A stretch of DNA of 40,968 nucleotides from Candidatus Undinarchaeales archaeon SRR5007147.bin71 (GTDB taxonomy: Archaea; Undinarchaeota; Undinarchaeia; Undinarchaeales; Undinarchaeaceae): positions 1 through 40,968 of the forward strand of contig DVAE01000030.1 in NCBI GenBank assembly GCA_014189675.1. Reading direction: 5' to 3'. The notes below the pieces were generated by a model. That model ran no database searches and was not told where the DNA came from. It was given only the letters and a program-made list of their open reading frames with translations. Shown here piece after piece: positions 5,625 to 40,968 of the stretch (the stretch's first letter is position 1; every line of letters starts with the position of its first letter). The position numbers and the translations under genes are program-made.

Positions 5625-5713
5625 ATACCGCGATAATTCTTTACAGTATATAAGCTTTTTTAGAAATTCCAAGAGTAATAATATATAGGAGCTTCCCCCA
5701 ACAATCACGGGAA

Positions 5714-8101: not shown

Positions 8102-8110
8102 TTTATTATT

Positions 8111-8755
8111 ATGAAATTCTTCATAGACAGCGCAGATATTGAGGAAATAAGGAAGGCAAAATCCTACGGAATAGTTGACGGAGTAACCACAAATCCTTCT
8201 CTGATTGCAAAAATGGGGAAGGAGCGAGATGAAACTGTCAAAGATATACTTTCTGAGTCAGACTGGCCAGTCAGTATTGAGGTAATTAGTACTGACACTG
8301 AAGGAATGCTGAAAGAAGCCTACGAAATAGCCAAGCTCGGAAAGAACGCCGTTGTAAAAATACCAATGACTCTTGAAGGCCTAGCTGCCGTGAAGGACTT
8401 AAGTGCAAAGGGAGTGAAGACTAATGTAACTCTTATTTTCTCGGCAAATCAGGCACTTCTTGCTGCAAAAGTAGGAGCAAATTACGTAAGCCCTTTTATT
8501 GGAAGACTGGATGACAAGGGAGAAGATGGAATGCAGCTTGTCAGGGATATTGTACAGATATATAGGAATTACGGATTTGAAACAGAAGTTCTTGTAGCAA
8601 GCATTAGGAGTGAAGAGCATGTACTGCAGGCTGCTCTGACAGGAGCTCACGTTTCAACCGTTCCGATTAAGGTTCTTGAAGAACTTGCAAAGCACGAGCT
8701 GACAGATGCTGGGCTTGAGAAGTTCCTAGAGGACTGGAAAAATCGGAAAAAATGA
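8111..8755 (+). CDS. tal: Transaldolase (short TalC/FSA family)
   Basis: [13 protein letters not shown], the Schiff-base Lys in VVKIP, and SPFIGRLDD. Glu in SIEV and Phe in SPF indicate transaldolase rather than FSA. Confidence 0.93.
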
Positions 8756-16804: not shown

Positions 16805-17611
16805 TTAAATTAAGAGATAAGATGCAGCAAGATAGGCCCCCATTGTACACGCCGCGAGGGGGGGCAAGGCTGGAATCGGCTTTCCCTTTCCATAGATTAG
16901 AAGGCTGTGGATTATTAATATTCCGAAGAGTCCTCCAACAATGACGAAGGCTGAGACAGAGAAACCTGTTCGCAGGGCTGACACCGCAAGTATTAATGGA
17001 AATGCCACGTCACCAGTTCCGAGGAAGGTATATTCTCGTTTTGTAGCTGGCTTTTTTAGTGTGGCTTTTTTTAAATCGGAGCCCATACCTGAAATCTTTT
17101 CAGAAGCTATGAGAGCAAGAGGTACTCCGCCTTCTAGAGTGCCTTTGAATAAGGTAATCATATGTTTTGTTTTGTAAACAGCTATGATATCGTAAACTGA
17201 GAGTATAGCAAGTATTATGAAAATAGTGCTCACATTGAATAGGAGACCAATTGTTGCTCCGACTCCAGCAAGAGCCAGTATGAGAGACGCATTCTGAACC
17301 AAAATTGTTGGATATGTAAATCTTATTACCACAAGGGAAAGTGCAAGAATCATTGCAGTCAGTTCAGAAAACATAACACTGAAAACTGTTTCGCTTCCGA
17401 CAAAGATTATGAAGGCCATAAGCACCTTCATGAACCCGAGACGCCTTTTAAGGAATTTTATTAAAACGAGAAACAGTGCAGTTGCTGCTGCAAACATAAT
17501 CAGGAAACCTTTTACAGCAGGTCCTGTCTCTGCAACAGGGATTACCTCAAGCGCTGCAATTTGAATGGCAACATAAAGCCCAATAATCTGAACAGCAAGG
17601 AAAAGAGACAT
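16805..17611 (-). CDS. Presenilin/signal-peptide-peptidase family intramembrane aspartyl protease (start uncertain, 17611-17683)
   Basis: YD (SVYDIIAV), GxGD (LGTGD) and PALP motifs, with about nine TM helices. Confidence 0.9.
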   Translation of the reverse strand: MSLFLAVQIIGLYVAIQIAALEVIPVAETGPAVKGFLIMFAAATALFLVLIKFLKRRLGFMKVLMAFIIFVGSETVFSVMFSELTAMILALSLVVIRFTYPTILVQNASLILALAGVGATIGLLFNVSTIFIILAILSVYDIIAVYKTKHMITLFKGTLEGGVPLALIASEKISGMGSDLKKATLKKPATKREYTFLGTGDVAFPLILAVSALRTGFSVSAFVIVGGLFGILIIHSLLIYGKGKPIPALPPLAACTMGAYLAASYLLI

Positions 17612-17639
17612 CTCAGAAAAGAGTAGTCTTGGCCTGAAA

Positions 17640-19685
17640 TCAGGGTTTTTTGAGAATGCCTTGTCGCGGCTCAAACAAATCACCCTTTGATTTTAGTTTG
17701 CTTATCAACTCAAGGGTCTTGAGATTGTCTATTCCACGATTTGCTGCCTCTATCAAAACATCGTCTATTTTTATATCTGGACCGTGCTCCTTTGCAATCT
17801 CATCTATGATTGTAAGAATTGTATTTATTCTGCTCCTCTGCACCGATGAAGTTCCTGCTTCCATTCTGTCTATATCAATCTTACCAGTCTCAGGGTCGGT
17901 ACCGAGGTCCCTTAAGGACTGCTCTATGAGCTTTGTGGCCCTCTTAGCATCATTAAGAGATACCTTCTTTGCTAGGCGGATTCGGGCTGAGGCTTCTGCA
18001 AGACGGACCATGGCTTCAAGTTGCCTAGGCGTAAGGGGAACTACCCCACCGTTATCATCATCATCACGATATTTGCCCCTCCAGCTTACATAGAAATGTT
18101 GAATTAGCTCTTTTGCTTTTTCTGTCATTATAGGATTCACTCTGCGTGCATAGGAAACATATTTCTGAATGAATTCAGCAGAGAGTTCAGGCTCAATTGT
18201 TTTTGGAGAAATAATAGAAGTGAGAACATGCTCAGACAGGAGTGTGTCCCTTTCAAGCCCAGGCAAGTCCCTCGAAGTGAACTTCAAGTCAAATCTACTC
18301 AGTATAACTGGAGACAGATCTATCTGTTCGTAAAGAGGCTTGTATACATCAAAGCGCCCGTATTTAGGGTTTGCTGCCGCAAGAACCGATGTATTCGCGC
18401 GTAGAGTTGTGACTATTCCTGCTTTTGCTATGGAAATTGTTCCCTGCTCCATAGCTTCCAGCATTGCCGAGCGGTCGTCATCGCTCATCTTGTCAAACTC
18501 ATCAACAGATACTACTCCATTGTTTGCAAGGATGAGAGCCCCGGCTTCAAGAGTCCATCCTCCAGAGAACTCATCACGAACAACTGCCGCAGTGAGACCT
18601 ACACCAGATGCTTTTTTTCCTGAAACGAAGCGACCTTTTGGAGCCAGTCCGGAGACATAACGAAGTATCTGGGATTTTCCAACAGCAGGATCTCCAACTA
18701 TGAAAATGTGGATATTTCCCCTGACAATGGTTCCGTCAGGATGCTGTTTTCGGACACCGCCCATAAGCTGGAGAAGGATTGCCTCCTTGATAGGTTCATA
18801 TCCTTTGATGGACGGCGCTATTGATGCGATAAGCTTTTCATAGACTTTTGGATCTTTTGAGAATTTCTTTATAGCTTCAACATCTTCATCCGACAGTTCT
18901 ATTTCCTGGAATTCCTGCTCAGTCGGATCAACATGATTAACCTCCAGATAGAAATCGTAGTTAACAGTCTGAGCTCCGCTCCTTGAGGGAATTGGAACTT
19001 TCTTTAGAGAGCCAACAAGCTGAACCCTGTTTCCTGGCATCACTTTTTTTCTTTCAGAGGGGGAAACCAAATCATCAGCTAGGTGAACATAGAGTTCAGA
19101 GGGCTGTTCGCCGCCGAAAATGGACTCAGGAGGTTCCTGAACCTTAAGTATCTGTGAGTCAATCAGAGTTTCATTGATAATCTTGAATCTTCCACGACGT
19201 GCGCACTCAAAATTATCACACTGGCTCGGAGAAATCATGTTTTTAGTAAACTGCGGCAAAACCATATTCGTCTTGCATTCAGGACACTCGAATGTAACTT
19301 TCAAAGCCTTTGGTCTGACTTCTGCCGCGTTTTTTACTATCCCTTCAATAGAAATTAGGCTGTCAAGGTGGTCAGAACGGATGTCCCTGAGAACAACTGT
19401 ATTTGCTTTTGGAAGATTGTGTAGGCGAATGTTAATAGACAGATTTTCAACGTCAATAGGAAGATCTATCTCAGATATTGCATCATGAGCCTGACGAAGC
19501 GCCTCTTCAGGATGGAGAAGAAGATCATCAGCAAGATCAGGGAAGGACTTATCAATATCAGCAAAGTCTACTAAAACAGACCTCTTGTCCGGGTATTCCT
19601 TAGCTATTTCGAGAAGTCTTCCGTAGTATTTCTTTGTCTTGAAAAACTGCTCAAATTTGTCAATAGAATCCTGCATATCTCCCAC
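17640..19685 (-). CDS. mcm: Replicative helicase MCM
   Basis: Zinc finger CPEC...C...C, Walker A GDPAVGKSQ, Walker B VDEFDKM, arginine finger SRFD and C-terminal winged helix. No intein. Confidence 0.98.
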   Translation of the reverse strand: MGDMQDSIDKFEQFFKTKKYYGRLLEIAKEYPDKRSVLVDFADIDKSFPDLADDLLLHPEEALRQAHDAISEIDLPIDVENLSINIRLHNLPKANTVVLRDIRSDHLDSLISIEGIVKNAAEVRPKALKVTFECPECKTNMVLPQFTKNMISPSQCDNFECARRGRFKIINETLIDSQILKVQEPPESIFGGEQPSELYVHLADDLVSPSERKKVMPGNRVQLVGSLKKVPIPSRSGAQTVNYDFYLEVNHVDPTEQEFQEIELSDEDVEAIKKFSKDPKVYEKLIASIAPSIKGYEPIKEAILLQLMGGVRKQHPDGTIVRGNIHIFIVGDPAVGKSQILRYVSGLAPKGRFVSGKKASGVGLTAAVVRDEFSGGWTLEAGALILANNGVVSVDEFDKMSDDDRSAMLEAMEQGTISIAKAGIVTTLRANTSVLAAANPKYGRFDVYKPLYEQIDLSPVILSRFDLKFTSRDLPGLERDTLLSEHVLTSIISPKTIEPELSAEFIQKYVSYARRVNPIMTEKAKELIQHFYVSWRGKYRDDDDNGGVVPLTPRQLEAMVRLAEASARIRLAKKVSLNDAKRATKLIEQSLRDLGTDPETGKIDIDRMEAGTSSVQRSRINTILTIIDEIAKEHGPDIKIDDVLIEAANRGIDNLKTLELISKLKSKGDLFEPRQGILKKP

Positions 19686-26983: not shown

Positions 26984-28127
26984 ACTATGGGCTGAGAAAT
27001 ACAGCCCGACGAAAATTGAGGAACTTGTTGGCCAGGAAAAGGCTGCTGAGACTCTGAAAACTTTTGTTAAGAATTACAAACCAGGCTCTGGGATTCTTCT
27101 TATTGGACCGAGCGGCTGCGGGAAAAACGTTCTTGTTTCAGCCCTGGCAAATGAAACTGGAAATGAGCTTCTGGAAACAAATGCATCAGACGTAAGGAAG
27201 AAGGCAGATATCGAAGAAATTATAGGAGGTGCTTCCCGTCAGATGAGTCTGACAGGGGATGGAAAAATAATACTCGTTGACGAAGCAGACGGAATCCACG
27301 GAAACTCTGATAGAGGAGGAGTACCTGCGATACTGAAGATAGTTCAAACCAGCGCATTCCCGATTGTTCTAACTGCAAATAATCCTGATGTGAGGGCAGT
27401 AAAAGAGCTGAAGAAGAAGTGCAAAGTTGTTAAAATGGCAAAGCTGACTGAAGCAGATGTTGCGGAGAGGCTTAAGGATATAATTTCTTCAGAAGGAATA
27501 GAAGCAGACGACAGCGTAATTATGCAGATAGCGTGGCGCTCAGAAGGCGACATGAGAATTGCAATAAATGAGCTCCAGGCAGTTTCGACCGGAAGACAGA
27601 AAATAACAAAGGAAAATTTGGAGCATTTAGGAGAACATGGCAAGAGACTTGCCGTTTCTGACGCTCTAAAAGCTATATTCAAAACTAAGGATGCAGATTT
27701 TATACGGAAGTCTATGTTTGCCTGCGATGTGGCGCCTGAAGAAATAATGCTGTGGATAGAAGAGAATATAGCACGTGAGTACGGAGATGCTTCGGAGATT
27801 GCAGAGGCCTATGACAAAGTATCACGGGCGGACATTTTTTTAAGAAGAATAAGAAGGGGGCAGCAGTGGGCTCTGCTTAGCTACGCCTCCGAGCTAATGT
27901 CAATAGGAACTGCCCGGGCGAAAAAAGAGAAGAATGGAAAGAGTGTAGATTATGTCTTTCCGCAGATAATTGCTCTTATGGGAAGAACAAAGTTCCAGAG
28001 AGCAAAAAGAGATTCCGAAGCCGCCGAGCTTGGGGAAGCTCTGCACTGCTCAAAAAAACGCGCGATTGAGCAGATGCCTTATTTTGATATTATTTTCCAA
28101 CACCAAGGACAGGGAAGCAGTCAGTAA
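26973..28127 (+). CDS. rfcL: Replication factor C large subunit (short form)
   Basis: WAEKYSP, GPSGCGKN, ETNASD, VDEADG, GDMR, WIEEN and ADIF motifs. Follows rfcS. Confidence 0.93.
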   Translation: MENELWAEKYSPTKIEELVGQEKAAETLKTFVKNYKPGSGILLIGPSGCGKNVLVSALANETGNELLETNASDVRKKADIEEIIGGASRQMSLTGDGKIILVDEADGIHGNSDRGGVPAILKIVQTSAFPIVLTANNPDVRAVKELKKKCKVVKMAKLTEADVAERLKDIISSEGIEADDSVIMQIAWRSEGDMRIAINELQAVSTGRQKITKENLEHLGEHGKRLAVSDALKAIFKTKDADFIRKSMFACDVAPEEIMLWIEENIAREYGDASEIAEAYDKVSRADIFLRRIRRGQQWALLSYASELMSIGTARAKKEKNGKSVDYVFPQIIALMGRTKFQRAKRDSEAAELGEALHCSKKRAIEQMPYFDIIFQHQGQGSSQ

Positions 28128-29070
28128 GATTTTCTATACGGCAATGAGTTACACTGATGTCCTCAGGATGTTCAACTTGCAAGTGGAGAGATAAGAACCT
28201 AAAATGAGAAGAATTTTGGGCTTCGCACTGAGCATCATCCCCAGTATCATTGATTACAGTATGCCTCTCAAGACAAGTTGCTGTATCTAGAGTGAAGTTC
28301 AGGATTTTTCCAGTATTTGAAAAATTTGCCTCCAAGGTACAAAGATTCAATCTAACATCATTTACTTTGTCGTTTGCAAGAGGGTCAAGGGCAGTAATAA
28401 ATTTGACAGTATAAGGAGGAGGTTCACCAACTTCTAGTGGAGGTGGAGTAAGCCCAAAACCTATCATAACTGGCATTTGCAGGTAGTCAAGAGACTCATC
28501 AAGAATTGTGAAGTGAAGCTCGCAGTCAGTTGTTGGTTCCGTTGGAGATTTGTTAAAATCCATAAGATTTGCACTGTCAGTTATACATTCAGGATCTACC
28601 GCCTCTGTCTGAGGAACACAAACATAGATAGCATCAGAGGATATAAAATCCTGACTTACTGTTCCTGCGACTGAGGACAATTGAGCTGAAACATTTATAG
28701 TCATAACCTCCTGAAGAGATGTGTCAATAACAAAAGTAATATTTTCTGCAAAGCCTTTTGAAGATATGAATGAATTCAGCTCATCTTTTGAATCGGTGCA
28801 AATATTCAGAAGAAAATCCTCATAAAGAAGGATATCTCCAATATCCTCACGGTTTGCGAAGAATAGAGCCTCGCTGACACATTCATCCATAACCTCACGA
28901 ATAACTTCAAAAACCTCTCCCGGATTCTGGGCAACAATAGACTGAGCCTGTTGTGTAGTAATTTCCTCAGCTTCCTCAGCTTCTAGAAAAACACTCGTTG
29001 CAACAACGATAACAATAACTGCACCGGCTATCGCAGCAACTCCGATGAGAGCCTTTCTGTTTTTGTTCAT
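28090..29070 (-). CDS. Cys-rich pilin-like protein with class III signal peptide
   Basis: Start MNKNRKA/LIGVAAIAG at 29070 (ATGA overlap), a hydrophobic helix and ten Cys. Last gene of the pilus operon. Confidence 0.65.
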   Translation of the reverse strand: MNKNRKALIGVAAIAGAVIVIVVATSVFLEAEEAEEITTQQAQSIVAQNPGEVFEVIREVMDECVSEALFFANREDIGDILLYEDFLLNICTDSKDELNSFISSKGFAENITFVIDTSLQEVMTINVSAQLSSVAGTVSQDFISSDAIYVCVPQTEAVDPECITDSANLMDFNKSPTEPTTDCELHFTILDESLDYLQMPVMIGFGLTPPPLEVGEPPPYTVKFITALDPLANDKVNDVRLNLCTLEANFSNTGKILNFTLDTATCLERHTVINDTGDDAQCEAQNSSHFRFLSLHLQVEHPEDISVTHCRIENLTDCFPVLGVGK

Positions 29071-29552
29071 TGTATAAACCATATTGCCAGATATACTGAG
29101 CAGGGAACAACAGTACAGGTGTTGTTAACATTTGCGCCGGAGATTGTTCTATCGATAGAGACTATCTCCTTTGTAGAAGGCTGAAGATTTGTAAGAGAAC
29201 CCCCTTTACGGGATATTGTTCCATTATCATATAAGTAAAATGTGAAACCAAGATGGTCAGGAAGCATTTTTGTCAGCTCACCTTCAAGATTAAAGGGGTC
29301 GTCAGCACTAGTCCAAGCTTGGTCTATAACAAACTTAGCAAGATCTTTTGAACTGTCATTATTCAAGTCACTTCTCCAAAGAGAGTTAAGAGAGTCTTTT
29401 GCATAGGTATTAAGAACAACATTTCCCCAGTCACCCGGCTGGCTGCTTTCTGTAAGCTGAAGAGACTGCAGATACATTATAGAAACAAATATCAAAACTG
29501 AAGCTAAGACTAGACCTACTAATTTTATCCACGCTTTTCTGTTTTCCATCAT
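29067..29552 (-). CDS. Minor pilin-like protein (class III signal peptide)
   Basis: MMENRKA/WIKLVGLVLASVLIF leader, N-glycosylation sequons and operon context. Confidence 0.7.
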   Translation of the reverse strand: MMENRKAWIKLVGLVLASVLIFVSIMYLQSLQLTESSQPGDWGNVVLNTYAKDSLNSLWRSDLNNDSSKDLAKFVIDQAWTSADDPFNLEGELTKMLPDHLGFTFYLYDNGTISRKGGSLTNLQPSTKEIVSIDRTISGANVNNTCTVVPCSVYLAIWFIQ

Positions 29553-29553
29553 T

Positions 29554-30081
29554 CTACCATACCATCAAAGTCACGTTAACTATTGTCTGGTTTATGACCA
29601 TAATTCTTGTAAGAACCACAACGTCTGAAAGCCTTGAAGGGTATCCTTCAGTCATATTAAGATAAACCCGACCAGATGACTCTATTTTGAGCCAGAATCG
29701 TGTACTATTTTCGAGGCTTAAGTTCTGGCTCACTTTTGTGTAGTTATTAGCTATAGTATCGTTTATGTAGAGGACTTTTTTCCAGTCCAGTTTGTTTCGA
29801 AGAGTTGAATTGCTAAAGTTGTTGTATTCCGCAAGTCCGATTCTGTCCGGAAGATTGTCAGAATCCCAGTCAGCAGGAAGTCCGGGATCATTCAAGAGGA
29901 GATTGCTTATATCGAGAGTCCTTGATTGGAGAACAAAGCGGTCAGAGGCCTCTTTCACAGACGGAGCCATATCAAGAATTGACATAGTCGCTGACATAAC
30001 CATTATTATGAGGAGAACTACCGCTATAATAACTCCTAGATTTCCCTGACCTTTATCTTGCTTTAGAAGAGGAATATCCAT
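29554..30081 (-). CDS. Minor pilin-like protein (class III signal peptide)
   Basis: DKG/QGNLGVIIAVVLLII leader, an LLNDPGLP.DW...IGLA motif and many sequons. Confidence 0.75.
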   Translation of the reverse strand: MDIPLLKQDKGQGNLGVIIAVVLLIIMVMSATMSILDMAPSVKEASDRFVLQSRTLDISNLLLNDPGLPADWDSDNLPDRIGLAEYNNFSNSTLRNKLDWKKVLYINDTIANNYTKVSQNLSLENSTRFWLKIESSGRVYLNMTEGYPSRLSDVVVLTRIMVINQTIVNVTLMVW

Positions 30082-30893
30082 GATGCCATGACCCCCGTTA
30101 CAAGGAATATTGCGCTGTGTTTGAGTCCAAGCTTTACAGAGTCATCAGCTATCTGGCCGGCTATCAGTCCGGTAAATATAGCCTGTATAACTACCATAGA
30201 AAAGAAAATTCCCTGATAAAAGGAAAGAACTGCTTCAGGGTCAATTGAGGCAATTGTAAATCCTCGAGAGAATACAAGAGGAACGAGAAGCTTCTGAAGC
30301 GAAATAACTATCATTAGAAAGAGGAAGAATATTGCATACATTATTACTGTTTGTTGCTGAAGCTTTGTCTTCCTCTCGGCTTCGGCTTCCTTGATTATGC
30401 GGGCGTCATTCGCGACCGCGTCAAGAGTTTCAGAAAGCGCTCCACCGCTCATTTGAGTTTCTATGATGATTGCAATAGCCCTTTGTACGAAACGACTGCG
30501 AGACTTTCTGGAAAATCTTCTTAGAGCTTCAATAAAAGGGACTCCCCAAGATAACTGAACAGCCATTTTCCTGACATATTTGCTAAGGACTCCATAATCA
30601 GTCTTTGAGCTTTTTGAAACAGCCTGAGGAAGAGTCAGCCCTGACTTTCTTGATTCTGCTATATCCCTAAGAAATGCCGGAAGCTGGTCCTCGATTTCCT
30701 CGATTTCCTTTCGTGAAGTATATGAGAAATAGGAGTAAGGAAGAAAGACAAGGAGAATCGCCACGCTGAAAGCTGGAGGAAGTAAATCATTTCGACCGAG
30801 TGCAAAGGGGATTATCATAAGAATTATGGCCAAGGCTGCGCTTATTCCGAGCACAATGTGCTGTGTTTTTACTGAAAGATTTTTTATATCCAT
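30063..30893 (-). CDS. Type IV pilus membrane platform protein (TadC/T2SS-F family)
   Basis: IEDQLPAFLRDIAESRKSGLTL...YGVLS...SWG...SGG, with TM helices. Confidence 0.92.
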   Translation of the reverse strand: MDIKNLSVKTQHIVLGISAALAIILMIIPFALGRNDLLPPAFSVAILLVFLPYSYFSYTSRKEIEEIEDQLPAFLRDIAESRKSGLTLPQAVSKSSKTDYGVLSKYVRKMAVQLSWGVPFIEALRRFSRKSRSRFVQRAIAIIIETQMSGGALSETLDAVANDARIIKEAEAERKTKLQQQTVIMYAIFFLFLMIVISLQKLLVPLVFSRGFTIASIDPEAVLSFYQGIFFSMVVIQAIFTGLIAGQIADDSVKLGLKHSAIFLVTGVMASWIFLF

Positions 30894-31774
30894 TAGAGAG
30901 GGGAAGCGATTTTTAGGAGACCTATCATAACAATTCCTGCGACAGGCAGAAAGATGTAGACAAGCGCCTGCTGGAGAAACCTAAAGCTTTCGAAACCAGA
31001 GATTGACCCCATAATAGTGAGCATGACTGTCGAAAATATTGAGCCGACGATGACAAGAGTAATGTAAAGTTCTATGTAAATTGAGAGATCGTTTGTGTAT
31101 TTTTCTATCTTTCTCCTGTATTCATTCATGAGAATTTTGGACTTTCCTGAGAGAAGAGCCCTTAGATTGCCTCCGCCGACTATTGTAGTTGAAATTCCCA
31201 AAAGCATTTCTTTGAACTGATCAGAAGGAGTCTGCTCCGCTGCCTTGTGAAGAGCATCATCGATGTCACGCCCCATTACTTCAACATCTTCCACTATTTT
31301 CTGTGCCTCCTTGGAAACTTCTCCGTATTCCTTGAAATCAGCAAGAAGTTTGAACATGGCAAAAGGAGGAGCTCCAGTTCCGGCTATTGTATTCATATAC
31401 AAAGTCGCAAAAGGGAGATTATTCTCTATATCTTTCTTTCTTTCTGCAGCAAGCATCTGAGGATAATAGAGAGACCCGACAAAAATTCCGGCTGTCAGAA
31501 CTGCCGTAACTGCAAGTGAGAGTATAAGTGCAAGAAGGAAGGGCTTCCCAAGAAGAATTATGTAAAGATAAGTTAGAGGAAGGGCGATGGCAGGAGTTAT
31601 CAGAGCATTCAGAAAGCATATGCAAACATACTCGCGGAGCATTATACCCATATTCGCCTGCCGGAGGAAAGGGTGTATCCATCGGAATTTGTCTATCTTT
31701 GTCTCCACAAAGTCCCGAAAAAGCCGGCTGGCAACTTCTACATACTTTTCATAGGATGATTTTTTCTCTGCCAT
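30893..31774 (-). CDS. Type IV pilus membrane platform protein (TadB/C, T2SS-F family)
   Basis: IENNLPFATLYM...YGEVSKEA...G.D...AL...TPS...GG, with TM helices. Confidence 0.92.
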   Translation of the reverse strand: MAEKKSSYEKYVEVASRLFRDFVETKIDKFRWIHPFLRQANMGIMLREYVCICFLNALITPAIALPLTYLYIILLGKPFLLALILSLAVTAVLTAGIFVGSLYYPQMLAAERKKDIENNLPFATLYMNTIAGTGAPPFAMFKLLADFKEYGEVSKEAQKIVEDVEVMGRDIDDALHKAAEQTPSDQFKEMLLGISTTIVGGGNLRALLSGKSKILMNEYRRKIEKYTNDLSIYIELYITLVIVGSIFSTVMLTIMGSISGFESFRFLQQALVYIFLPVAGIVMIGLLKIASPL

Positions 31775-31775
31775 A

Positions 31776-33695
31776 TCACTTTATATGATTGAGAAGCTTG
31801 CTAGGATTCTGGTAGTACTCATGTATGACTCTGCCAACATTCCGGTAGTCCCTAATATTTTTTGACTTCATCCAGTCCAGCACCTTCATTCTGTTCTTTA
31901 CCTCCTCGTAGATTGAATCAGGAGTTCCTCCTGTAATCTCCATGATGAGCTTTAGTATTGAGCTCTTGCCAGAATATGAATATTTATCGTTTGAGGCAGA
32001 CCAAGTAAAGGCAGTGTTTGTTTTTGGAATATCTTTTTCAATATCATATCCTGTTATCTCAACTAGCTCCTTTGACCTACGGATGTACTTGCCCTTAATT
32101 CTCTGTCTTGTAAGAACAAGAAGTAAGTCAAGGTGCTGAAGCAGACTCGGAGGCAGGTTTATAGGAGGAGTTCTGAGCCGATTAACTACTGCCATCATAG
32201 ATTCAGCGTGGATAGTGCTAAGACCAGGGTGTCCTGTTGCCATCTGTTGGAAGAGAACATAGGCTTCACGGCCCCTCACTTCACCGACGATTATAATATC
32301 AGGTCTCTGACGCAGAGAAGCTTTGAGCAAGTCAAAGAGATCTATCTCACCAAGTTTCTTTCCACTCACTCCTTCAGGACCGAAGCCAGTTCTTGAAACC
32401 TGCGACACCCAATTCTCATGTGGAAGTCGAAGCTCAGGAGTATCTTCAATAGTTATTACTTTCAACTCTGGCCTGATGAAAAGAGACAGGGCATTCAGCA
32501 TCGTAGTTTTTCCGGACGCAGTAGGTCCAGCAATCAGGATAGACTTGCCGTGCTCTATAGCAAGCCATAGATATGCAAGAAGCTCTGAGTTCACAGTACC
32601 ATAATTAAGAAGATCTATGCAGGTCATTGGATCGGCTGTGAACTTCCTTATTGTGAAATTTGAACCCTTCATTGAGATTCCAGAGCCGAAAGTTGCCTGT
32701 ACACGTGAGCCATCAGGGAGAGCTCCATCAAGTAAGGGATCTGCTATGCTGATGGAACGCCCGCATTTCTGGGACAAGCGCATAACGAAGGAATCTAACT
32801 CCTCCTCTGTGTCGAACTTGACATTTGTCCTCACTGAGCCGAATCGCTGGTCACGGTGGTACACATAAATTGGGACGCCAACGCCATCGCAACTTATGTC
32901 CTCTATGTTCGGATCATTTAGCAAAGAATCTATCTTACCAAAGCCTATGAAATTTCGCTGGATGTAATATTCTATGAAGTGCCTAGTTCTTTCACTCATT
33001 CTGAAATTATAGTAGCTTATAACAGAATCCAGTTTTTGTGATAGGTACTGCTCCGCCTTGAGAGTCTTTAGTGCGGAAAAGTCAACCTCCAGTTCCTCGA
33101 CAAGAGTACTCTCTATTCTTTTGAGCATCTCATTTTCCTGGGGAGTAAGAACAGGCTCTATAACCTTGTAAAGAAGACCTTGAGACCTTGGATCATAGCG
33201 TATATTTGCGTAGACATGGACTTTCCCTCCTTTATATATCAGAGGGTAGGTTATATTGACTCCAAGAAGAGATTCTCTCCTTTCAGGCTCATGTTTTTGC
33301 GTACTAGGCCTTCTTCGACCACCAGAAGTTGATGGAAGTGAAAGTGAAAAATCCGATTGGACGCGACGGGTAGTCTTTGGCTCCTCTGCAGGAACAGCTA
33401 CAGATTCTTTCTTCACCTGCTTTTCAAGAGCAAGTTTCAGAAGCTCGGATACAAGCGATTTAAGCTCACTCTCTGAGACTCCTTCTCCATTCTCTTTTGA
33501 AAGTTCAGATGAAATCCTATCAAAACTTTCCTCACTTATTGCCTGCTTGTTCCTGGCATCAATGGCAGGTTGAAGTATGTCCATAAGATTTGGAGCGGAC
33601 CTCTTTTGAGAAACACCAGGAGGCATCTGCACAGGAGCAGGGCTGGAATGATATGTCTTCTTTGCGTGTTTTAGGAACTTTGTAAGGTTCTTCAT
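31776..33695 (-). CDS. Type IV pilus assembly ATPase (VirB11/TadA/FlaI family)
   Basis: IEDISCDG, LPDGSRVQ, FTIRKF, Walker A GPTASGKT, IEDTPEL, RQRPDIIIVGEVRG and His box TGHPGLSTIH. Confidence 0.97.
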   Translation of the reverse strand: MKNLTKFLKHAKKTYHSSPAPVQMPPGVSQKRSAPNLMDILQPAIDARNKQAISEESFDRISSELSKENGEGVSESELKSLVSELLKLALEKQVKKESVAVPAEEPKTTRRVQSDFSLSLPSTSGGRRRPSTQKHEPERRESLLGVNITYPLIYKGGKVHVYANIRYDPRSQGLLYKVIEPVLTPQENEMLKRIESTLVEELEVDFSALKTLKAEQYLSQKLDSVISYYNFRMSERTRHFIEYYIQRNFIGFGKIDSLLNDPNIEDISCDGVGVPIYVYHRDQRFGSVRTNVKFDTEEELDSFVMRLSQKCGRSISIADPLLDGALPDGSRVQATFGSGISMKGSNFTIRKFTADPMTCIDLLNYGTVNSELLAYLWLAIEHGKSILIAGPTASGKTTMLNALSLFIRPELKVITIEDTPELRLPHENWVSQVSRTGFGPEGVSGKKLGEIDLFDLLKASLRQRPDIIIVGEVRGREAYVLFQQMATGHPGLSTIHAESMMAVVNRLRTPPINLPPSLLQHLDLLLVLTRQRIKGKYIRRSKELVEITGYDIEKDIPKTNTAFTWSASNDKYSYSGKSSILKLIMEITGGTPDSIYEEVKNRMKVLDWMKSKNIRDYRNVGRVIHEYYQNPSKLLNHIK

Positions 33696-34138
33696 TATAT
33701 ATCCTCTAATACCATTATACCAGACGTTGAATTATAAGCTATACGATGTTGCCCGCCGGCTGTAGAACTGAAACTTCCATTGATTGAAATGTTAAATTTT
33801 AGTATTGGAAGAGTCCGATTTATGTCATAGAATTCATCGCGAACGAGTATTGATGTATTATTTGTAATGATTAAGTAGCGATGACCCGCAAGATAGGGAG
33901 GAAGTTCTATATTAAGTGAGTAATTATCAACATACCTTCCGTAGATGTAAGAGTTTGATATGGCCAGGTGAACATAGGAGGCAACGTTCCTGAACTGGTG
34001 ACCTGCCTGGAAATCAGACATGTCATCTTTTATTCCGCCGAAAACTGTAAGAAACATTATAAAGATGAAAACGCCCATCACCGCGAAGCATACCTGCTCG
34101 AATATGGCCGTACTGCCCTTACGGTTATAGAAGCCCAT
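33695..34138 (-). CDS. Minor pilin-like protein (class III signal peptide)
   Basis: MGFYNRKG/STAIFEQ leader plus hydrophobic helix and a LPPYLAGHRY motif. Coupled to the ATPase. Confidence 0.75.
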   Translation of the reverse strand: MGFYNRKGSTAIFEQVCFAVMGVFIFIMFLTVFGGIKDDMSDFQAGHQFRNVASYVHLAISNSYIYGRYVDNYSLNIELPPYLAGHRYLIITNNTSILVRDEFYDINRTLPILKFNISINGSFSSTAGGQHRIAYNSTSGIMVLEDI

Positions 34139-34179
34139 ATTACGACTAAAGAAAGCGCTTATTTATCTATTTTGATACC

Positions 34180-34830
34180 TCATCTTAGGTCAACGAGGAC
34201 ATTTGTATGTATTGTACCGCTGCTGTTAACTCTACCCATGTTTCTTGCTATAACTGTTGTTGAAGTTCCCGAAACTCTGGAAACTTCACCAATTGAAATA
34301 TTAATCAGATAGGACGTTGATGAGGTGGTGTCGTTTATCTGCCTAAACCATATCATAAAGGAATTCGCATAGCTGTTCCCAGATTTGAAAGGCCGAGCTA
34401 CCAGAACACCGGAGCTTCCATTAGTCTGATTTGCTGAGCATCGAATATTCGGCTCTATAGGGTCTATAGACACCCAGTCTAATGAATCGATGAGCTTCCG
34501 GTTGTTCGTGAGATTGTATAGAATTGCATTCTTGTTCACATTCGTACCGGAGCAATGGCTTCCGTTAAGAACGGATAAACTTCCCATCCTCAAGTTCATT
34601 CGCACTATACGGGTCGAGTTTATCTGTTCCTGTCCGACCTCAAGAATTGCGTTCTTTATATCGAGAAGTTTTGCCTGAGAATAAGTAACCGTAACTGATA
34701 CTTGCTGAGTTTCCAGCATCTCCTTCCCCCAGCTAAAAGTCAGTATAACAAGAGCTGTTACAACAAGAATCATCACGACTGAGGATATAACAGGGGACTG
34801 GGCTTTTCTAGAGCGGTGATGAGAAACCAT
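34180..34830 (-). CDS. Pilin-like protein (class III signal peptide)
   Basis: SRKA/QSPVISSVVMILVVTALV leader and many sequons. Confidence 0.82.
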   Translation of the reverse strand: MVSHHRSRKAQSPVISSVVMILVVTALVILTFSWGKEMLETQQVSVTVTYSQAKLLDIKNAILEVGQEQINSTRIVRMNLRMGSLSVLNGSHCSGTNVNKNAILYNLTNNRKLIDSLDWVSIDPIEPNIRCSANQTNGSSGVLVARPFKSGNSYANSFMIWFRQINDTTSSTSYLINISIGEVSRVSGTSTTVIARNMGRVNSSGTIHTNVLVDLR

Positions 34831-34845
34831 AATATGAAAGGATGC

Positions 34846-35343
34846 CTAGCAAAGGTAGCTCGAATAGGTGCATGTGAACTTGATGAGCTTCTCGGCAGAT
34901 GTTTCTTTTGAAGAGATTCTTACCTCTTTCGTCTTGTTTACCCACTCAGAACAGGAAACATCATTCAGGACGCCTCCGCTGTAGGAAGTTACAGTTCCGG
35001 CGGAGAGTGTGTCATTAGCCATACCTGACTGCAGGGCATCATCCACAAAGAGCTGAAGCTTCTCAGCCTGCTCTGTCCCTGCGTTTCTTACATAAATTGT
35101 GATGTTTGCTTTATCAGTGCTTGAAGAGCAATTTGCTACAAAACCCTCAACTTTCAGTTGTACGTTAAGACCTCCTAGAAGTTCCAAGCTTGTGTTCTCG
35201 CTTGAAGTCTGTATTGTACCCTGCATTCTCTGAAGGAAAGTATAAGCTAGACCGGCTATTGCTATAGTCATCATAAGAAGTAGAATAACTGAAATTATAG
35301 GAGTTATTCCCTTTTTGCTTGAAAAGAATTTTGGAAATCTCAT
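34846..35343 (-). CDS. Archaeal type IV (probable major) pilin
   Basis: SKKG/ITPIISVILLLMMTIAIAGLAY, the canonical archaeal pilin N-terminus, plus IYVRNAG. Confidence 0.92.
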   Translation of the reverse strand: MRFPKFFSSKKGITPIISVILLLMMTIAIAGLAYTFLQRMQGTIQTSSENTSLELLGGLNVQLKVEGFVANCSSSTDKANITIYVRNAGTEQAEKLQLFVDDALQSGMANDTLSAGTVTSYSGGVLNDVSCSEWVNKTKEVRISSKETSAEKLIKFTCTYSSYLC

Positions 35344-35543
35344 TTTGCCTCCATAATCTCGATTACAGTTTCAAGGACATACAATATTGAAAGCATGACA
35401 ATGACCTGAAGACCTGCCATGAAAATTAGAAGCATTGAAGACATACCTGTTCCTCTCGCAATATAAGCAATTACTAGAGAGAATATAAAAGCCAGAATTA
35501 TTGTTATCTGGATTACGATTTTACGGGATTTTCGGGTAGTCAT
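35340..35543 (-). CDS. Small two-TM membrane protein in the pilus operon
   Basis: Basic N-terminus and two hydrophobic helices. ATGA overlap with the pilin gene. Confidence 0.7.
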   Translation of the reverse strand: MTTRKSRKIVIQITIILAFIFSLVIAYIARGTGMSSMLLIFMAGLQVIVMLSILYVLETVIEIMEAK

Positions 35544-35544
35544 A

Positions 35545-36123
35545 TTATTGTGGAGGTAGTGGAGGCGGTGGTAGCTGCCTTCTTGGCTGCTGCGGTCTCT
35601 GAACAGGAGCAGGAGCCACTACAGCTCTTTGTGGCGCTACGCTCTGTCGCCTTAAATATCTTTCCAAGGAATCAAGAGTCTTAGATAGTTGCTTGTTTTG
35701 TTCCTTGAAATCAGTCATTGCAGATTTCATCTCACCTATTGCTGATGAAACTTCCTTCATACTTCCTTCTTCTTCAGTTTCCATTGCCTCTGTTGCTTCG
35801 GCGAATATTGTAAGTATTTTGGAAAGCTTCTGGGAAAGCCCACGGTTAGTCTCATTCATCAAGTCAAGAGCACTCTGTATCTTTTCTGCGACTTGCTGAT
35901 TGGATTTTGAGACCTGCTCCTGCATTTGCTGAGTTGACTCCAGGAGGCCCATCATTTTTTTTATGAATTCGTCTGCGTGTGATTCAATTTTTGTGAGCCC
36001 GACAGTGCCGCGCAGAGCGGATTTAATTTCATTTATATCGTGCTCGAGCTTCTCTTCCTTTCGTTCGAGCTCGTCATAAGGGCTTGACGCAACAACTTCG
36101 TATGATTCAGACTCTTCCGCCAT
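35545..36123 (-). CDS. Coiled-coil protein with Pro/Gln-rich tail, first gene of the pilus operon
   Basis: Heptad-like E/K/Q/M-rich helix ending RRQLPPPPLPPQ. Minus-strand TTTATATA at 36149-36156, 25 nt upstream. Confidence 0.75.
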   Translation of the reverse strand: MAEESESYEVVASSPYDELERKEEKLEHDINEIKSALRGTVGLTKIESHADEFIKKMMGLLESTQQMQEQVSKSNQQVAEKIQSALDLMNETNRGLSQKLSKILTIFAEATEAMETEEEGSMKEVSSAIGEMKSAMTDFKEQNKQLSKTLDSLERYLRRQSVAPQRAVVAPAPVQRPQQPRRQLPPPPLPPQ

Positions 36124-36176
36124 GGCTACTCGGTTTAAAGAGAGAGTCTATATAAATGTTGCTTTTAAAGAGTGGG

Positions 36177-36204
36177 AAAAATAAGAAAGGGGCCCGAAGG
36201 CCCC
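36177..36204 (-). terminator. GC hairpin with cUUCGg tetraloop plus U-tract after the thermosome gene
   Basis: The minus strand reads GGGGCC-TTCG-GGCCCC-TTTCTTATTTTT, starting 13 nt after the stop. Confidence 0.85.
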
Positions 36205-36217
36205 AGATTTCAGGATA

Positions 36218-37861
36218 TTACATCATACCCGGCATTCCGCCCATTTCTGGGGGCATTGCTGGGGCTCCTCCCTTGCCAAGCTCCTTGGCAGAGATTACAT
36301 CATCGATGCGGATTATCATTTCCGCTGCTTCTGATGCGCTCTTAATTGCCTGTGTCTTAATCTTAAGAGGCTCAAGAACACCTTCCTTCTGCATGTCGAT
36401 GACCTTTCCGCGGAACACGTCAAGACCGTGTGAGTTTTGACCCTTCTGGTCGTGTGCTGATCTTAGCTCAGTCATTTTGTCAATCGGGTCAAGACCGGCA
36501 TTCTCTGCCAGTGTTCTTGGAACAATTTCCAGAGCATCAGCAAAGGCATTTATTGCCAGCTGTTCTCTTCCGCTGACTTTCTCAGCAGCCTTTCGAACGG
36601 TCTTGGAAACTTCTATCTCAATTGCTCCTCCGCCTGCAACTACCTTTCCAGTCTCAAGTGTTGCTGAAACGCCACCGATTGCATCATCCAGTGCACGCTT
36701 AACTTCGTCAACCACGTGGTCAGTTCCTCCCCTTACCAGGAGAGAAACAGCCTTTGGAGATTTGCAGTCAGTAACGAAGACCATTGAGTCTCCGGCAATT
36801 TTGCGTTCCTCGACGCTTCCGGCATTTCCAAGGCTTTCCTTGTCCAGGTCGTCAAGATTTGAAATTATACTTGCGCCTGTTGCACGGGATAGTTTTTCCA
36901 TATCGGACTTTTTGACACGCCTTACAGCAAATATTCCCTCTTTTGCAAGGAAGTGCTGTGCCATATCGTCAATTCCCTTCTGGCAGAAGAGCACCTTTGC
37001 ACCGGATGCTTTGACTTTGTCAGTCATATCTCGGAGCATTCCCTCTTCCTGTGAAAGGAAGGCTTGAAGCTGGTTTGGATCAGTGATTCTGATTTCAGAA
37101 TCGGTTTCAGTTTCCTTTACCTCAAGAGCTGCGTCAACAAGAGCTATCTTTGCACCGCTGACAGCCTGAGGCATTCCAGGGTGGACTCGCTCTTTGTCAA
37201 TTATGAGCCCCATTATAAGCTCGCTATCGTCAATTGAGCCTCCACTCTTTTTCTCAATCTTGATATTATCAAGATCGACAGAAAGTGAGCCGTTTGACTC
37301 GTCTGCAACAAGTGTTACTGCCTTAACTGCGAGTTTTGCAAGACTTTCTCTTGCTCTCTCTGCTGACTTTCCAGTCATTGCAGTCATAGCAACTTTTTCT
37401 AGAATTCCAGTATCACCTGGAGAAACATTTTCTCCCGCTGAAGCCAGAAACTCCTGAGCAATATCATTAGCTTTTCTGTAGCCCTGTACAATAACAGTCG
37501 GATGTATATTCTGGTCGAGAAGATTCTCTGATTCCTTGAGAAGTTCTCCTGCGATTATCACAGCAGTTGTTGTTCCATCTCCGACTTCGTCTTCCTGAGC
37601 CTTTGATACTTCAACAAGCATCTTAGCTGCAGGGTGTTGTATGTCCATCTCGCCGAGCAGAGTAGCGCCATCATTTGTGATAACAATATCTCCAAGCGAG
37701 TCTACAAGCATCTTGTCCATTCCTTTTGGACCAAGAGTAGTTCTTACGGCTTCCGCTACAACGCGACCTGCCATAATATTCATTCTTTGTGCGTCCCTTC
37801 CAAGAGTCCTTTTAGAATTCTCAGATAGAACGATTACTGGTTGTCCAGTCATTTGTGTCAT
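36218..37861 (-). CDS. ths: Thermosome (group II chaperonin) subunit
   Basis: [23 protein letters not shown] and GGGA motifs, with a GGM-like tail. GGAGGT SD at 37869-37874 and TATA at 37911-37918. Confidence 0.98.
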
Positions 37862-40083: not shown

Positions 40084-40968
40084 ATGCCCAATAGGAAAGC
40101 TGCAGCCGGATTAGTTCTTGGAGTTGTTCTGATAATTGTACTTATACCTACGATGATAGGGCTTCTCGGTCTTGGAAAACTTGCAGGAGGGCTGTTTGGA
40201 GAGACGGAAGGAGTTATTCCAACTAATGGGAAAGAGCTTATTGTTCTAGGGAATCCAGGAAATCTGATGGTAGCAGGCTACAGTGACGGAGACGCCAAGC
40301 TACTGTTTGATTCTGAAGTTGGAAATGAATTTCCGAATGTATTCGGAAATGGGGGAAACCCATGGGTACAAGTAAGAGTTGGAGACCTTGATGGAGACGG
40401 AATTGATGATGATTTTATTGCATTGACTGAAGACAAGGAACTCGTAATTTTTAACATTAAAGATTATACAGAACAGTATACGCAATTGAATGACTATGAC
40501 ACTTCAGACCTTGCAGGGCTTACAAATTGGGACGTAATAAGTCTTGAGGAAGACGAGCCGAGTGATTCAAATATGATTGGAGGTGCAGGAGATAGTTTGG
40601 GAGACATAAGAGCTTTCAGAAAAGATGACGGGGAAATTATAATTGGGAACAAACCACTACTTGTCGGAGATTTGGATGGGGACGGGGACGATGAAATAAT
40701 TGTTTTAGGAGTGTCGGTGTTACATATTTATAGGCAAACAGATTCAGGAGGATACGAAGAATATTCTGTTGAGTATTATGATTCTTGGGAATCAGAAGCC
40801 AATACTGTGAGTTTCGCAGGCGGAGTTGAGGTTGCAGGAATATCAGATAGCGATTTGGATGGACGTGAAAATAATATAGTCCTCATCTATAGGAGCACCA
40901 CAAACGAGGAGAAATCTCCTCGAAAGATGAGAACACTTGAGATTGAGATGTTCCAACTTCAGTCAGGA
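40084..40968 (+). CDS. FG-GAP/VCBS-repeat surface protein with class III-like leader (3' truncated; not in ORF track)
   Basis: Manual translation is open for 295 codons to the edge: MPNRKA/AAGLVLGVVLIIVLIP... with repeats VGDLDGDGIDDDFI, VGDLDGDGDDEIIV and ISDSDLDGRENNIV. Confidence 0.85.
   Translation, partial: MPNRKAAAGLVLGVVLIIVLIPTMIGLLGLGKLAGGLFGETEGVIPTNGKELIVLGNPGNLMVAGYSDGDAKLLFDSEVGNEFPNVFGNGGNPWVQVRVGDLDGDGIDDDFIALTEDKELVIFNIKDYTEQYTQLNDYDTSDLAGLTNWDVISLEEDEPSDSNMIGGAGDSLGDIRAFRKDDGEIIIGNKPLLVGDLDGDGDDEIIVLGVSVLHIYRQTDSGGYEEYSVEYYDSWESEANTVSFAGGVEVAGISDSDLDGRENNIVLIYRSTTNEEKSPRKMRTLEIEMFQLQSG

Follow-up and report, generated by a model that had tools for sequence, protein, structure and literature searches.

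The 40,968-nucleotide stretch analysed here (hereafter the window; contig DVAE01000030.1 of assembly GCA_014189675.1, Candidatus Undinarchaeales archaeon SRR5007147.bin71) carries on its minus strand, between positions 28090 and 36123, a block of eleven co-oriented open reading frames (ORFs), numbered g1 to g11 (Table 1). From g1 to g11 they encode a coiled-coil protein (CCP), a small protein with two transmembrane (TM) segments, three pilin-like proteins, an assembly ATPase, two platform proteins and three further proteins with class III leaders. The successive intergenic gaps are 1, −4, 15, 41, −1, 1, −1, −19, 1 and −16 nt, so that most of the genes overlap or abut and the block is tightly coupled. 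A sequence-only reading of the window had described the same eleven coupled genes, had named their products in the same way, in agreement with the T2SSE, T2SSF and TIGR02537 matches found here, and had given the six leaders as they stand in Table 1. We consider it probable (about 0.78) that the eleven genes form one operon for a non-motile type IV pilus-like machine, the vertically inherited pilus of DPANN archaea that has been described as 'Locus 1' (Hamm et al., 2024).

Family matches were scored with Pfam and NCBIfam models, each against its own cut-off. The ATPase g6 matches T2SSE at 128 bits (cut-off 24.9). Its best NCBIfam match is the FlaI equivalog model NF058587 (415.9 bits, E 2.5e-124), which falls 134 bits short of the cut-off of 550, and among solved relatives A. 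fulgidus afGspE (2oap) scores best with 410 bits, followed by S. acidocaldarius FlaI (294) and CpaF (140). PilB3_C reaches 15.5 bits in g6, below its cut-off of 27, yet PF23989 (PilB3_C) is annotated in many of the homologs. The N-terminal extension of ~150 amino acids (aa) is lineage-specific and lies outside the conserved core, and ATPase relatives beyond the phylum align only from about residue 120–150 onward. The closest named relatives of g6 come from 'archaeon UBA55' (97% identity), a metagenome-assembled genome (MAG) labelled Methanobacteriota (90%) and Undinarchaeota MAGs (56–58%); identity is ~50% in Aenigmatarchaeota, Nanohaloarchaea and one Micrarchaeota MAG. The platform genes g7 and g8 contain one T2SSF domain each (57.1 and 65.4 bits), and these are the only T2SSF matches in the whole assembly. 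g7 covers positions 5–244 of the 555 in the ArlJ model and g8 covers positions 266–464 of the 484 in UpsF; because each matches one half of these models, the two genes encode one platform protein in split form.

The first pilin-like protein, g3, matches the archaellin/pilin N-terminal model TIGR02537 at 36.1 bits (cut-off 20) and Arch_flagellin at 28–29 bits (29.2 for the ORF), just under the cut-off of 29.5, and is the sole Arch_flagellin-like match in the assembly. Profile A8, made from 52 g3-type proteins, matches the Pyrobaculum calidifontis flagellar-like type IV pilus (T4P) pilin 8fk7 over the full length (E 6.9e-15), as well as FlaG 5tug (4.5e-6), Iho670, the Haloferax volcanii T4P 8fj5 (2.9e-5) and Natrinema PilA2. 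With an assembly ATPase, a platform, a class III filament subunit (g3) and, elsewhere in the genome, a prepilin peptidase, the hallmarks of the type IV filament (T4F) superfamily all appear to be present.

Some of these matches could be read as a reduced or atypical archaellum for swimming, an explanation that we consider highly improbable. The FlaI model is the best NCBIfam match of g6, g3 is weakly ArlG-, ArlF- and Arch_flagellin-like, the best solved relative of its family is a 'flagellar-like' pilin, and g1 has a faint FlaC_arch match. However, g6 stays under the equivalog cut-off and afGspE outscores FlaI; g3 reaches 25.7 bits with ArlG and 23.6 bits with ArlF, far from the cut-offs of 110; FlaC_arch is matched by only 2 of the 57 members of the CCP family; and the 8fk7 filament is itself titled as a pilus, not an archaellum, among the entry titles in the reference list of PMC10334743. 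Furthermore, no archaellin (ArlB) scores above the cut-off in the assembly, which comprises 623,718 bases in 39 contigs and is 83% complete, and its only matches to PF06745, the KaiC family to which ArlH would belong, are RadA (Rad51, 299 bits) and a RadB-like protein. Together, these observations argue against an archaellum, and they agree with the sequence-only reading, which had found no arlF, arlG or arlH in the window.

The two genes at the head of the block are less easily placed. g1 has neither a TM segment nor a signal and ends in a Pro-rich tail, which would fit a cytoplasmic protein. Its N-terminus carries a diverged copy of the conserved motif YE(V/I)(I/V)PxxPIR(R/K)LE(K/R)R, and E9, P15 and Q65 are invariant in the family alignment A4. 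Its Pfam matches are generic coiled-coil noise only. Membership of the FlaC family was not accepted, FlaC_arch reaching 19.5 bits against a cut-off of 27.8 and recognising the two family members mentioned above; coiled-coil proteins give unspecific matches to models of this type. A complex prediction for g1 with residues 140–639 of g6 (alignments A4 and A5) scored 0.00 in two control-free runs, a value that speaks neither for nor against binding. g2 has hydrophobic segments at 9–27 and 38–56 and matches no Pfam or NCBIfam family; it was rejected as an Epd/Flp-like short pilin on account of its two TM segments and the lack of a G/A at −1.

Table 1. Features of the pilus locus and its upstream border in the window. 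The last column gives, for each pilin-like gene, the equivalent position in the 80 related loci, the number of ORFs there with a class III site (our own rule, ORF starts uncurated) and the site or residue that is kept.
Feature	Coordinates	Strand	Description	Position; ORFs with class III site; site or residue
g1	35545-36123	-	192 aa; cytoplasmic coiled-coil protein (predicted)	
g2	35340-35543	-	67 aa; small 2-TM membrane protein	
g3	34846-35343	-	165 aa; PilA/ArlF-G/archaellin-like pilin, major-pilin candidate; leader KKG/ITPI	−3; 43/57; K-G/I
g4	34180-34830	-	216 aa; minor pilin-like protein; leader RKA/QSP	−2; 62/64; K-G or A/Q
g5	33695-34138	-	147 aa; minor pilin-like protein; leader RKG/STAIFE, Glu at +6	−1; 55/70; Glu at +6 in 36
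g6	31776-33695	-	639 aa; VirB11/GspE-type assembly ATPase	
g7	30893-31774	-	293 aa; platform protein, N-terminal half of TadC/ArlJ-type protein	
g8	30063-30893	-	276 aa; platform protein, C-terminal half	
g9	29554-30081	-	175 aa; class III-leader protein; leader DKG/QGN	+3; 47/63; Glu at +5 in 29
g10	29067-29552	-	161 aa; class III-leader protein; leader RKA/WIK	+4; 34/49; Glu at +6 in 29
g11	28090-29082	-	330 aa, 10 Cys; class III-leader protein; leader RKA/LIG	+5; 19/33; K-G/QF
Thermosome gene	36218-37861	-	directly upstream of g1; Cpn60_TCP1 614 bits	
G+C hairpin	36189-36204	-	between thermosome stop and g1; read by eye	
T-run	36177-36188	-	adjoins G+C hairpin; read by eye	
TATA-like TTTATATA	36149-36156	-	ends 25 nt before g1 ATG; read by eye	

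The sequence-only reading had counted six pilin-like subunits, and our support for them differs from gene to gene. A pilin nature is well supported for g3 and for g4. With TIGR02537 g4 reaches 16.9 bits, below the cut-off of 20. Its AlphaFold2 (AF2) model, computed with 65 positional orthologs (mean predicted local confidence, pLDDT, 89.6), has a predicted helix of 55 residues (13–67) followed by a beta sandwich, and a VIA-align comparison puts type IV pilins (9iuf, 8pfb, 8tum, 6xxd, 1ay2 and others) in the top rows, at low Z values of 4.4–3.0, which fall below 5 in the range that the tool itself calls common. The only PDB match of the g4-family profile is again 8fk7 (E 0.0017). For g5, which scores 21.7 bits with DUF7266 (cut-off 27.6), a pilin nature is plausible. 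For g9 to g11 the leader and the position in the operon suggest it, and the claim of a pilin fold does not extend to their globular parts. The AF2 model of g9 (pLDDT 83.6) has a helix at 15–63 and then an alpha/beta domain. The g10 family (alignment A6) aligns over its first ~100 residues with the large variable protein found at the same position in other DPANN (A7; hhalign probability 96%, E 2.7e-9), so that g10 appears to be the short form of a variable, often large protein; among 38 rows of proteins from this position, one carries Laminin_G_3, one carries CBM_4_9 and four are unrelated H+-PPases. The g11 profile matches the K-G/QF family at its position elsewhere weakly and in the N-terminal helix only (probability 75%, E 2.5e-5), and in the Atlas g11 falls with unnamed archaeal clusters (0.92), with DUF7286 as a lead at 0.81.

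All six proteins are rich in N-X-S/T sequons, with 3.0 (g3), 3.7 (g4), 4.8 (g5), 5.1 (g9), 1.9 (g10) and 2.4 (g11) per 100 aa, which is 3 to 9 times the density in the genome (0.59 per 100 aa in ORFs of at least 200 aa); the other five genes of the block have 0–0.5. This is as would be expected of exported, N-glycosylated archaeal surface proteins. Class III sites were found with regular-expression rules of our own, which are loose and flag many false ORFs: in the assembly they pick out 59, mostly short ORFs or polytopic membrane proteins. Six leader-bearing genes are nevertheless packed within the 8 kb of the pilus locus and, because of this packing, the sequon density and a gene order that is conserved across phyla, the pilin-like cluster is more than chance.

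To follow the locus across genomes, we collected 172 stretches that encode a relative of the ATPase and kept 80 loci, from Undinarchaeota, Aenigmatarchaeota, Nanohaloarchaea and Micrarchaeota. Scored by phmmer at E<=1e-3, g6 is present in all 80, g7 and g8 in 76 each, g3 in 51, g4 in 46, g1 in 36, g9 in 27, g5 in 24, g10 in 5, and g11 and g2 in 2 each; many of the loci end at contig ends, so these counts are lower bounds that mix true absence with truncation. The shared order runs from the thermosome through the CCP, in some loci a membrane protein of ~70 aa, between one and three PilA-like pilins, a ~210-aa protein, a ~140-aa protein, the ATPase and the two platform halves to proteins of 150–300, 160–650 and 100–330 aa. 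Each of the six pilin positions seems to retain a K-G/A cleavage-type motif of its own (Table 1). The CCP is best recognised by its N-terminal motif, which 56 of the 80 loci have in an ORF upstream of the ATPase. ORFs of 68–73 aa occupy the g2 position in several other DPANN loci, and orthologs of g3 are duplicated in tandem in many relatives. Conservation of the locus was one of the checks proposed with the sequence-only reading, and the order is indeed kept in the 80 loci and over several phyla.

Within the phylum, an ortholog of the ATPase is found in 17 of 17 genomes. Thirteen phylum loci were compared, with two near-identical genomes and one genome with a weak best match left out. By sequence, g6 is present in 13, g7 and g8 in 12, g4 and g9 in 10, g3, g5 and g10 in 8, g1 in 7, g2 in 5 and g11 in none; the g11 position is filled by an ORF of 229–281 aa in six of the 13, and the full gene order is kept in most of them. 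Two side observations concern related genomes. The genome G008 encodes a third ATPase (L104, G008:C9:64972-80423, at 6959-8686 on the minus strand; 575 aa, 38% identical to g6), absent from the window's assembly. Its neighbours are a coiled-coil protein of 300 aa and two ORFs without a name (301 and 401 aa). This ATPase was rejected as the true ArlI of the phylum, given 286 bits with the FlaI model and the neighbouring coiled-coil gene, and its locus possibly corresponds to 'Locus 2' in Hamm et al. (2024). In G010 (G010:C8:11871-13409) a match to an ATPase paralog contains one in-frame TAG, which could be explained by a disrupted gene, an error of assembly or stop-codon recoding. In addition, two proteins at the g9 position carry DUF2341.

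The borders of the block are also shared. In 45 of the 80 loci a thermosome gene precedes the pilus genes on the same strand, and genes for replication factor C (RFC), of which the large and small subunit genes follow g11 in the window in convergent orientation, are found convergent downstream in 16; both flank the pilus genes in 12 loci, two from Undinarchaeota and ten from Nanohaloarchaea. The Nanosalina locus is laid out like the published Locus 1 (Hamm et al., 2024): first comes a protein that, judged by its N-terminus alone, is presumably GatE, and after it thermosome, CCP, pilins, ATPase, platform, three leader-bearing genes and RFC. Between the thermosome stop and g1 we noted by inspection a terminator-like element (the hairpin with its T-run) and a putative TATA-like element, TTTATATA, and this arrangement suggests that the pilus genes have a promoter to themselves and a leader that is short or missing.

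The genome supplies the enzymes that such a machine would need in part from other contigs. The only Peptidase_A24 of the assembly lies on contig C21 and scores above the cut-off (39 bits; 36 bits for the 288-aa ORF), with Asp21 in a DIK context and GGAD at 79–82. A search of the window gave no A24 match, as the sequence-only reading had found, and the C21 gene is a candidate for the PibD/EppA peptidase whose location it had asked for. The window does hold, at 16805-17683 on the minus strand, a presenilin-type signal-peptide peptidase (PF06550, 74.5 bits), an intramembrane aspartyl protease and not a prepilin peptidase. The oligosaccharyltransferase AglB/STT3 is encoded on contig C7 (114 bits). 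The assembly also contains a second, very divergent VirB11-like ATPase of 767 aa at a contig edge (G000:C36:619-2922, L002; T2SSE 48 bits, FlaI model 128 bits), with which no platform gene was detected in the assembly; frames of ~770 aa with the same weak ATPase match occur in most genomes of the phylum.

Elsewhere in the genome, a scan with the loose class III rule brought up no ~70-aa globule-less pilin ORF that stands out. Among the few other class III-like candidates is a 219-aa ORF at G000:C14:20428-21087 on the minus strand, which starts MKGGKG/LLSAIVGISILALI. Another lies in the window itself, at 40084-40968 on the plus strand, and is open-ended, running off the 3' end with 295 aa seen; it has a class III-type start, MPNRKA/AAGLVLGVVLII, and an FG-GAP_3 repeat (30.7 bits, cut-off 26.9) and matches no NCBIfam model. 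Situated 4 kb from the operon, this ORF may encode an additional pilin-like adhesin. A 939-aa ORF at 2889-5708 on the minus strand of the window has no Pfam match at E<=1e-5 and no NCBIfam match at E<=1e-3.

Such a small number of class III-type proteins bears on a further explanation, that the locus builds only a short pseudopilus, similar to the bindosome or to the piston of type II secretion, which places or exports surface proteins, with g9–g11 as assembly proteins of the PilN/PilO/GspM kind. If so, there would perhaps be no abundant shaft protein besides g3, in keeping with the 'minor' look of five of the six leader-bearing proteins and with the g9 model, whose long helix and alpha/beta domain find their best rows among periplasmic sensor-type domains. 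We regard it as improbable. g3 is a good match to filament-forming archaeal pilins, and its tandem copies in many relatives are what major pilins have. At the g9 and g10 positions, the conservation of the K-G/A-Q site with Glu at +5/+6 is more in keeping with proteins cut by the peptidase than with anchors that stay uncleaved. Scores with the bindosome models are far below the cut-offs, BasE reaching 227 against 1000 and BasF 42 against 1300.

Several results weigh against our reading of the locus as the operon of a six-subunit pilus. Neither a filament nor processing or expression has so far been seen in this organism, and none of the 21 public sequencing runs listed was an RNA data set. At 83% completeness, absences such as that of ArlH or of a second pilin are provisional. 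The conservation counts share the limits of contig ends, and by sequence g11 has relatives in only the two closest genomes among the 80 loci. Above threshold, g9, g10 and g11 are without any Pfam or NCBIfam match, and the family matches of the g4 and g5 sequences themselves are all sub-threshold. A Foldseek comparison of the g4 model with the PDB returned no row at E<=1e-3, to which the low Z values given above may be added. The best VIA-align rows of the g9 model are PDC/Cache/PAS-type sensor domains (Z 7.2–5), and no pilin is among the 50 rows listed, although pilin kinship is not thereby excluded. Instead of filament subunits, g9–g11 could therefore be bitopic assembly proteins akin to PilN/PilO. 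Finally, the family counts that link the minor pilins to other archaea, given next, were made at a permissive threshold.

At E<=0.01, a threshold used here in place of the gathering score, DUF7266 is matched by 44 of 71 positional orthologs of g5, DUF7289 by 31 of 65 of g4 and DUF7287 by 21 of 64 of g9, that is, by 62%, 48% and 33% of the members. Of the window's own proteins only g5 shows its match; g4 has none to DUF7289 and g9 none to DUF7287. Among 14 control genomes, all three families were found in Haloferax volcanii and two in Methanosarcina acetivorans, none was found in Methanocaldococcus jannaschii or Sulfolobus acidocaldarius, and DUF7266 also gave weak matches in two bacterial genomes. 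A literature search on DUF7266, DUF7287, DUF7288 and DUF7289 found no papers. The distribution of the three families points to a link between the minor pilins and these haloarchaeal and Methanosarcina families. Taken with the score order of the ATPase and the PilB3_C annotation of its homologs, it suggests kinship with 'clade 2', a euryarchaeal group of Makarova et al. (2016), which these authors place as sister to the archaellum clade and in which many loci have two tadC-like genes (PMC4858521).

The closest described system is Locus 1. Hamm et al. (2024; PMC11291902) report, in the text available, two conserved type IV pilus-like loci with coiled-coil proteins in cluster-2 DPANN and Undinarchaeota. 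Their Locus 1 comprises CpaF, TadC, FlaF and PilA, with GroEL, GatE, Mpg and a P-loop NTPase as neighbours, and several of its products were detected by proteomics in Ca. Nanohaloarchaeum antarcticus. The locus studied here has all of these parts, a CCP, FlaF/PilA-type filament proteins, a CpaF-type ATPase and TadC, and two of the neighbours correspond as well, the chaperonin being the thermosome and the P-loop NTPase being RFC; Undinarchaeota are among the published carriers. The window locus is the Undinarchaeota copy of this known, widely conserved DPANN pilus operon. This part-for-part match runs counter to the distinctness from described systems that the sequence-only reading had implied, and the gene-for-gene mapping that it had named as evidence against itself is largely provided by Locus 1, a system that is itself known without experimental characterisation. 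There are differences of detail. The accessible description of Locus 1 names only FlaF and PilA as filament proteins, whereas the window has six leader positions, and the small 2-TM gene is here also part of the set. Hamm et al. compare the CCPs to the viral attachment protein sigma-1, whereas the lack of a signal or TM segment in g1 would fit a cytoplasmic place.

Similarities to better-studied pili are partial. With clade 2 or system 2 (Haloferax PilB3-PilC3 with PilA1-6, and the PilB4 type), the locus appears to share the N-terminal extension of the ATPase, its closeness to afGspE instead of FlaI, a PilA-like major pilin, the DUF families of Haloferax and Methanosarcina that part of the minor-pilin orthologs match, and the two tadC-like genes that also occur in many clade-2 loci (PMC4858521). 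However, a 2026 census (Sivabalasarma and Albers, 2026; PMC13705601) defines system 2, in its available text, by a single platform gene whereas the window has two, and the PilA pilins of Haloferax are unlinked, whereas those of the window all lie in one operon. DUF2341, a PilY-like adhesin domain, is tied to clade 1 by Makarova et al. (PMC4858521). With the Sulfolobales systems (Aap, Ups and the bindosome) the locus has in common the T4F core of ATPase, platform and class III pilins and a PibD-type peptidase encoded elsewhere. In contrast to these, the platform in the window is split in two genes, the scores for UpsA (28), UpsB (17) and UpsF (51–52) are far from the cut-offs of 130, 70 and 400, as are those of the bindosome models, and the locus has no gene of AapX size (~530 aa).

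What the locus has in common with Epd (system 1), as described for M. maripaludis (Nair et al., 2013), is an operon of eleven genes that includes a single ATPase, a pair of platform genes and several minor pilins. The window locus differs in lacking both an EppA-type peptidase of its own and a major pilin of ~70 aa without a globular domain, and the DUF7266, DUF7289 and DUF7287 families of window-type loci were not found in Methanocaldococcus. According to the available text of the census, 1990 DPANN genomes have system-1-specific pilins, and Ca. Undinarchaeum marinum is filed under system 1. Six consecutive proteins of this organism are listed as arCOG03871, arCOG08272, arCOG03821, arCOG01817, arCOG01808 and arCOG01808, which is the order of g3 to g8, and the accessible list gives nothing for the next accessions. 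The assignment draws on two arCOGs. Of the pilins beside the ATPase, arCOG03871 and arCOG08272 precede arCOG03821; arCOG08272 is listed under system 2 and arCOG03821 under system 1, and the platform arCOG01808 differs from arCOG01811 and arCOG01812 of system 1. The published 'system 1 (Epd)' label for Undinarchaeota therefore fits this locus poorly.

What the pilus would do is a separate question, and DNA uptake is a use proposed in print. Dombrowski et al. (2020; PMC7414124) report pilus genes from every Undinarchaeota MAG and suggest that they serve to import DNA, and Xie et al. (2022) repeat the proposal for Nanohaloarchaeota, whose Tad-like cluster they describe as identical in layout to that of Undinarchaeota, with no pilins annotated in the account available. 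The locus could then encode chiefly a competence-type pilus or pseudopilus that feeds the nucleoside salvage of auxotrophic cells and not an adhesion organelle. The window also encodes a PNP_UDP_1 protein, two phosphoribosyltransferases, a transketolase and a transaldolase, and three positional families keep Glu at +5 or +6, a residue that bacterial pilins and pseudopilins typically have there and archaeal pilins usually do not. On the other hand, no DNA-binding domain, ComEC-like channel or nuclease was found in or beside the locus, variable domains of lectin type, found in other DPANN at the g10 position, suggest that surfaces or glycans are bound, and in both papers, as far as their available text goes, DNA uptake is a proposal made without experiment. 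We consider DNA uptake as the chief function unlikely, while the two uses are compatible with each other. Adhesion or host contact is the most plausible role, as in the sequence-only reading, which had proposed an adhesion, host-contact or uptake pilus with a complex minor-pilin set. The locus does offer one major-pilin candidate and five further pilin-like proteins; it is the separateness of such a pilus from described systems that did not hold.

On the reading as a Locus 1 pilus, the machine might work as follows. A PibD/FlaK-type peptidase, encoded on contig C21, would cut the short basic leaders of the six pre-pilins after K/R-G/A. The hexameric ATPase g6, docked on the platform of g7 and g8, would lift the processed subunits from the membrane and polymerise them. 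g3, the sole PilA/archaellin-like pilin of the assembly, would build the shaft, while g4 and g5, encoded upstream, and g9, g10 and g11, encoded downstream, would be low-abundance subunits that start or cap the filament. At the g10 and g11 positions, variable and sometimes lectin-bearing proteins may set what the pilus sticks to. All six subunits would be N-glycosylated outside the cell by AglB. In the cytoplasm the coiled-coil protein g1 may act as a partner of the motor, in a place analogous to that of ArlX/ArlCDE, and g2 may be a small accessory protein in the membrane. Such a pilus would probably serve to attach the cell to a host or a surface, with DNA uptake as a possible second use.

These results amount to refinements and not to a new kind of system, and the basic published picture is unchanged. 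New here is that the conserved set takes in the three downstream genes as well as the 2-TM gene, that minor pilins are linked to DUF families and that the system-1 label is doubtful. The census found T4F genes of Nanobdellati rarely in one ordered locus, with pilins more scattered (Sivabalasarma and Albers, 2026, in the text available). In the genomes compared here the pilins flank the ATPase and platform genes on both sides and are not scattered, but they mostly escape existing profiles.

DPANN archaea live attached to other cells, and to our knowledge no DPANN attachment organelle outside Nanobdellales has been worked out so far. In the 83%-complete assembly, g1–g11 is the only pilus-type locus with a recognisable platform, and the operon is the most conserved candidate for an attachment organelle of DPANN. 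More speculatively, and with odds well short of even, Locus 1 may be a T4F subsystem of its own and an ancestral DPANN trait: a fixed operon of ~11 genes with a split platform like that of system 1 and an ATPase and minor pilins like those of system 2, with six fixed pilin families, three of them with Glu at +5/+6 in a priming or tip complex, and with a CCP that docks on the motor through YEVIPxxPIRRLEKR and is not a sigma-1-like adhesin outside the cell. If true, the linkage to the thermosome across phyla would make this one of the most ancient gene neighbourhoods conserved in DPANN.

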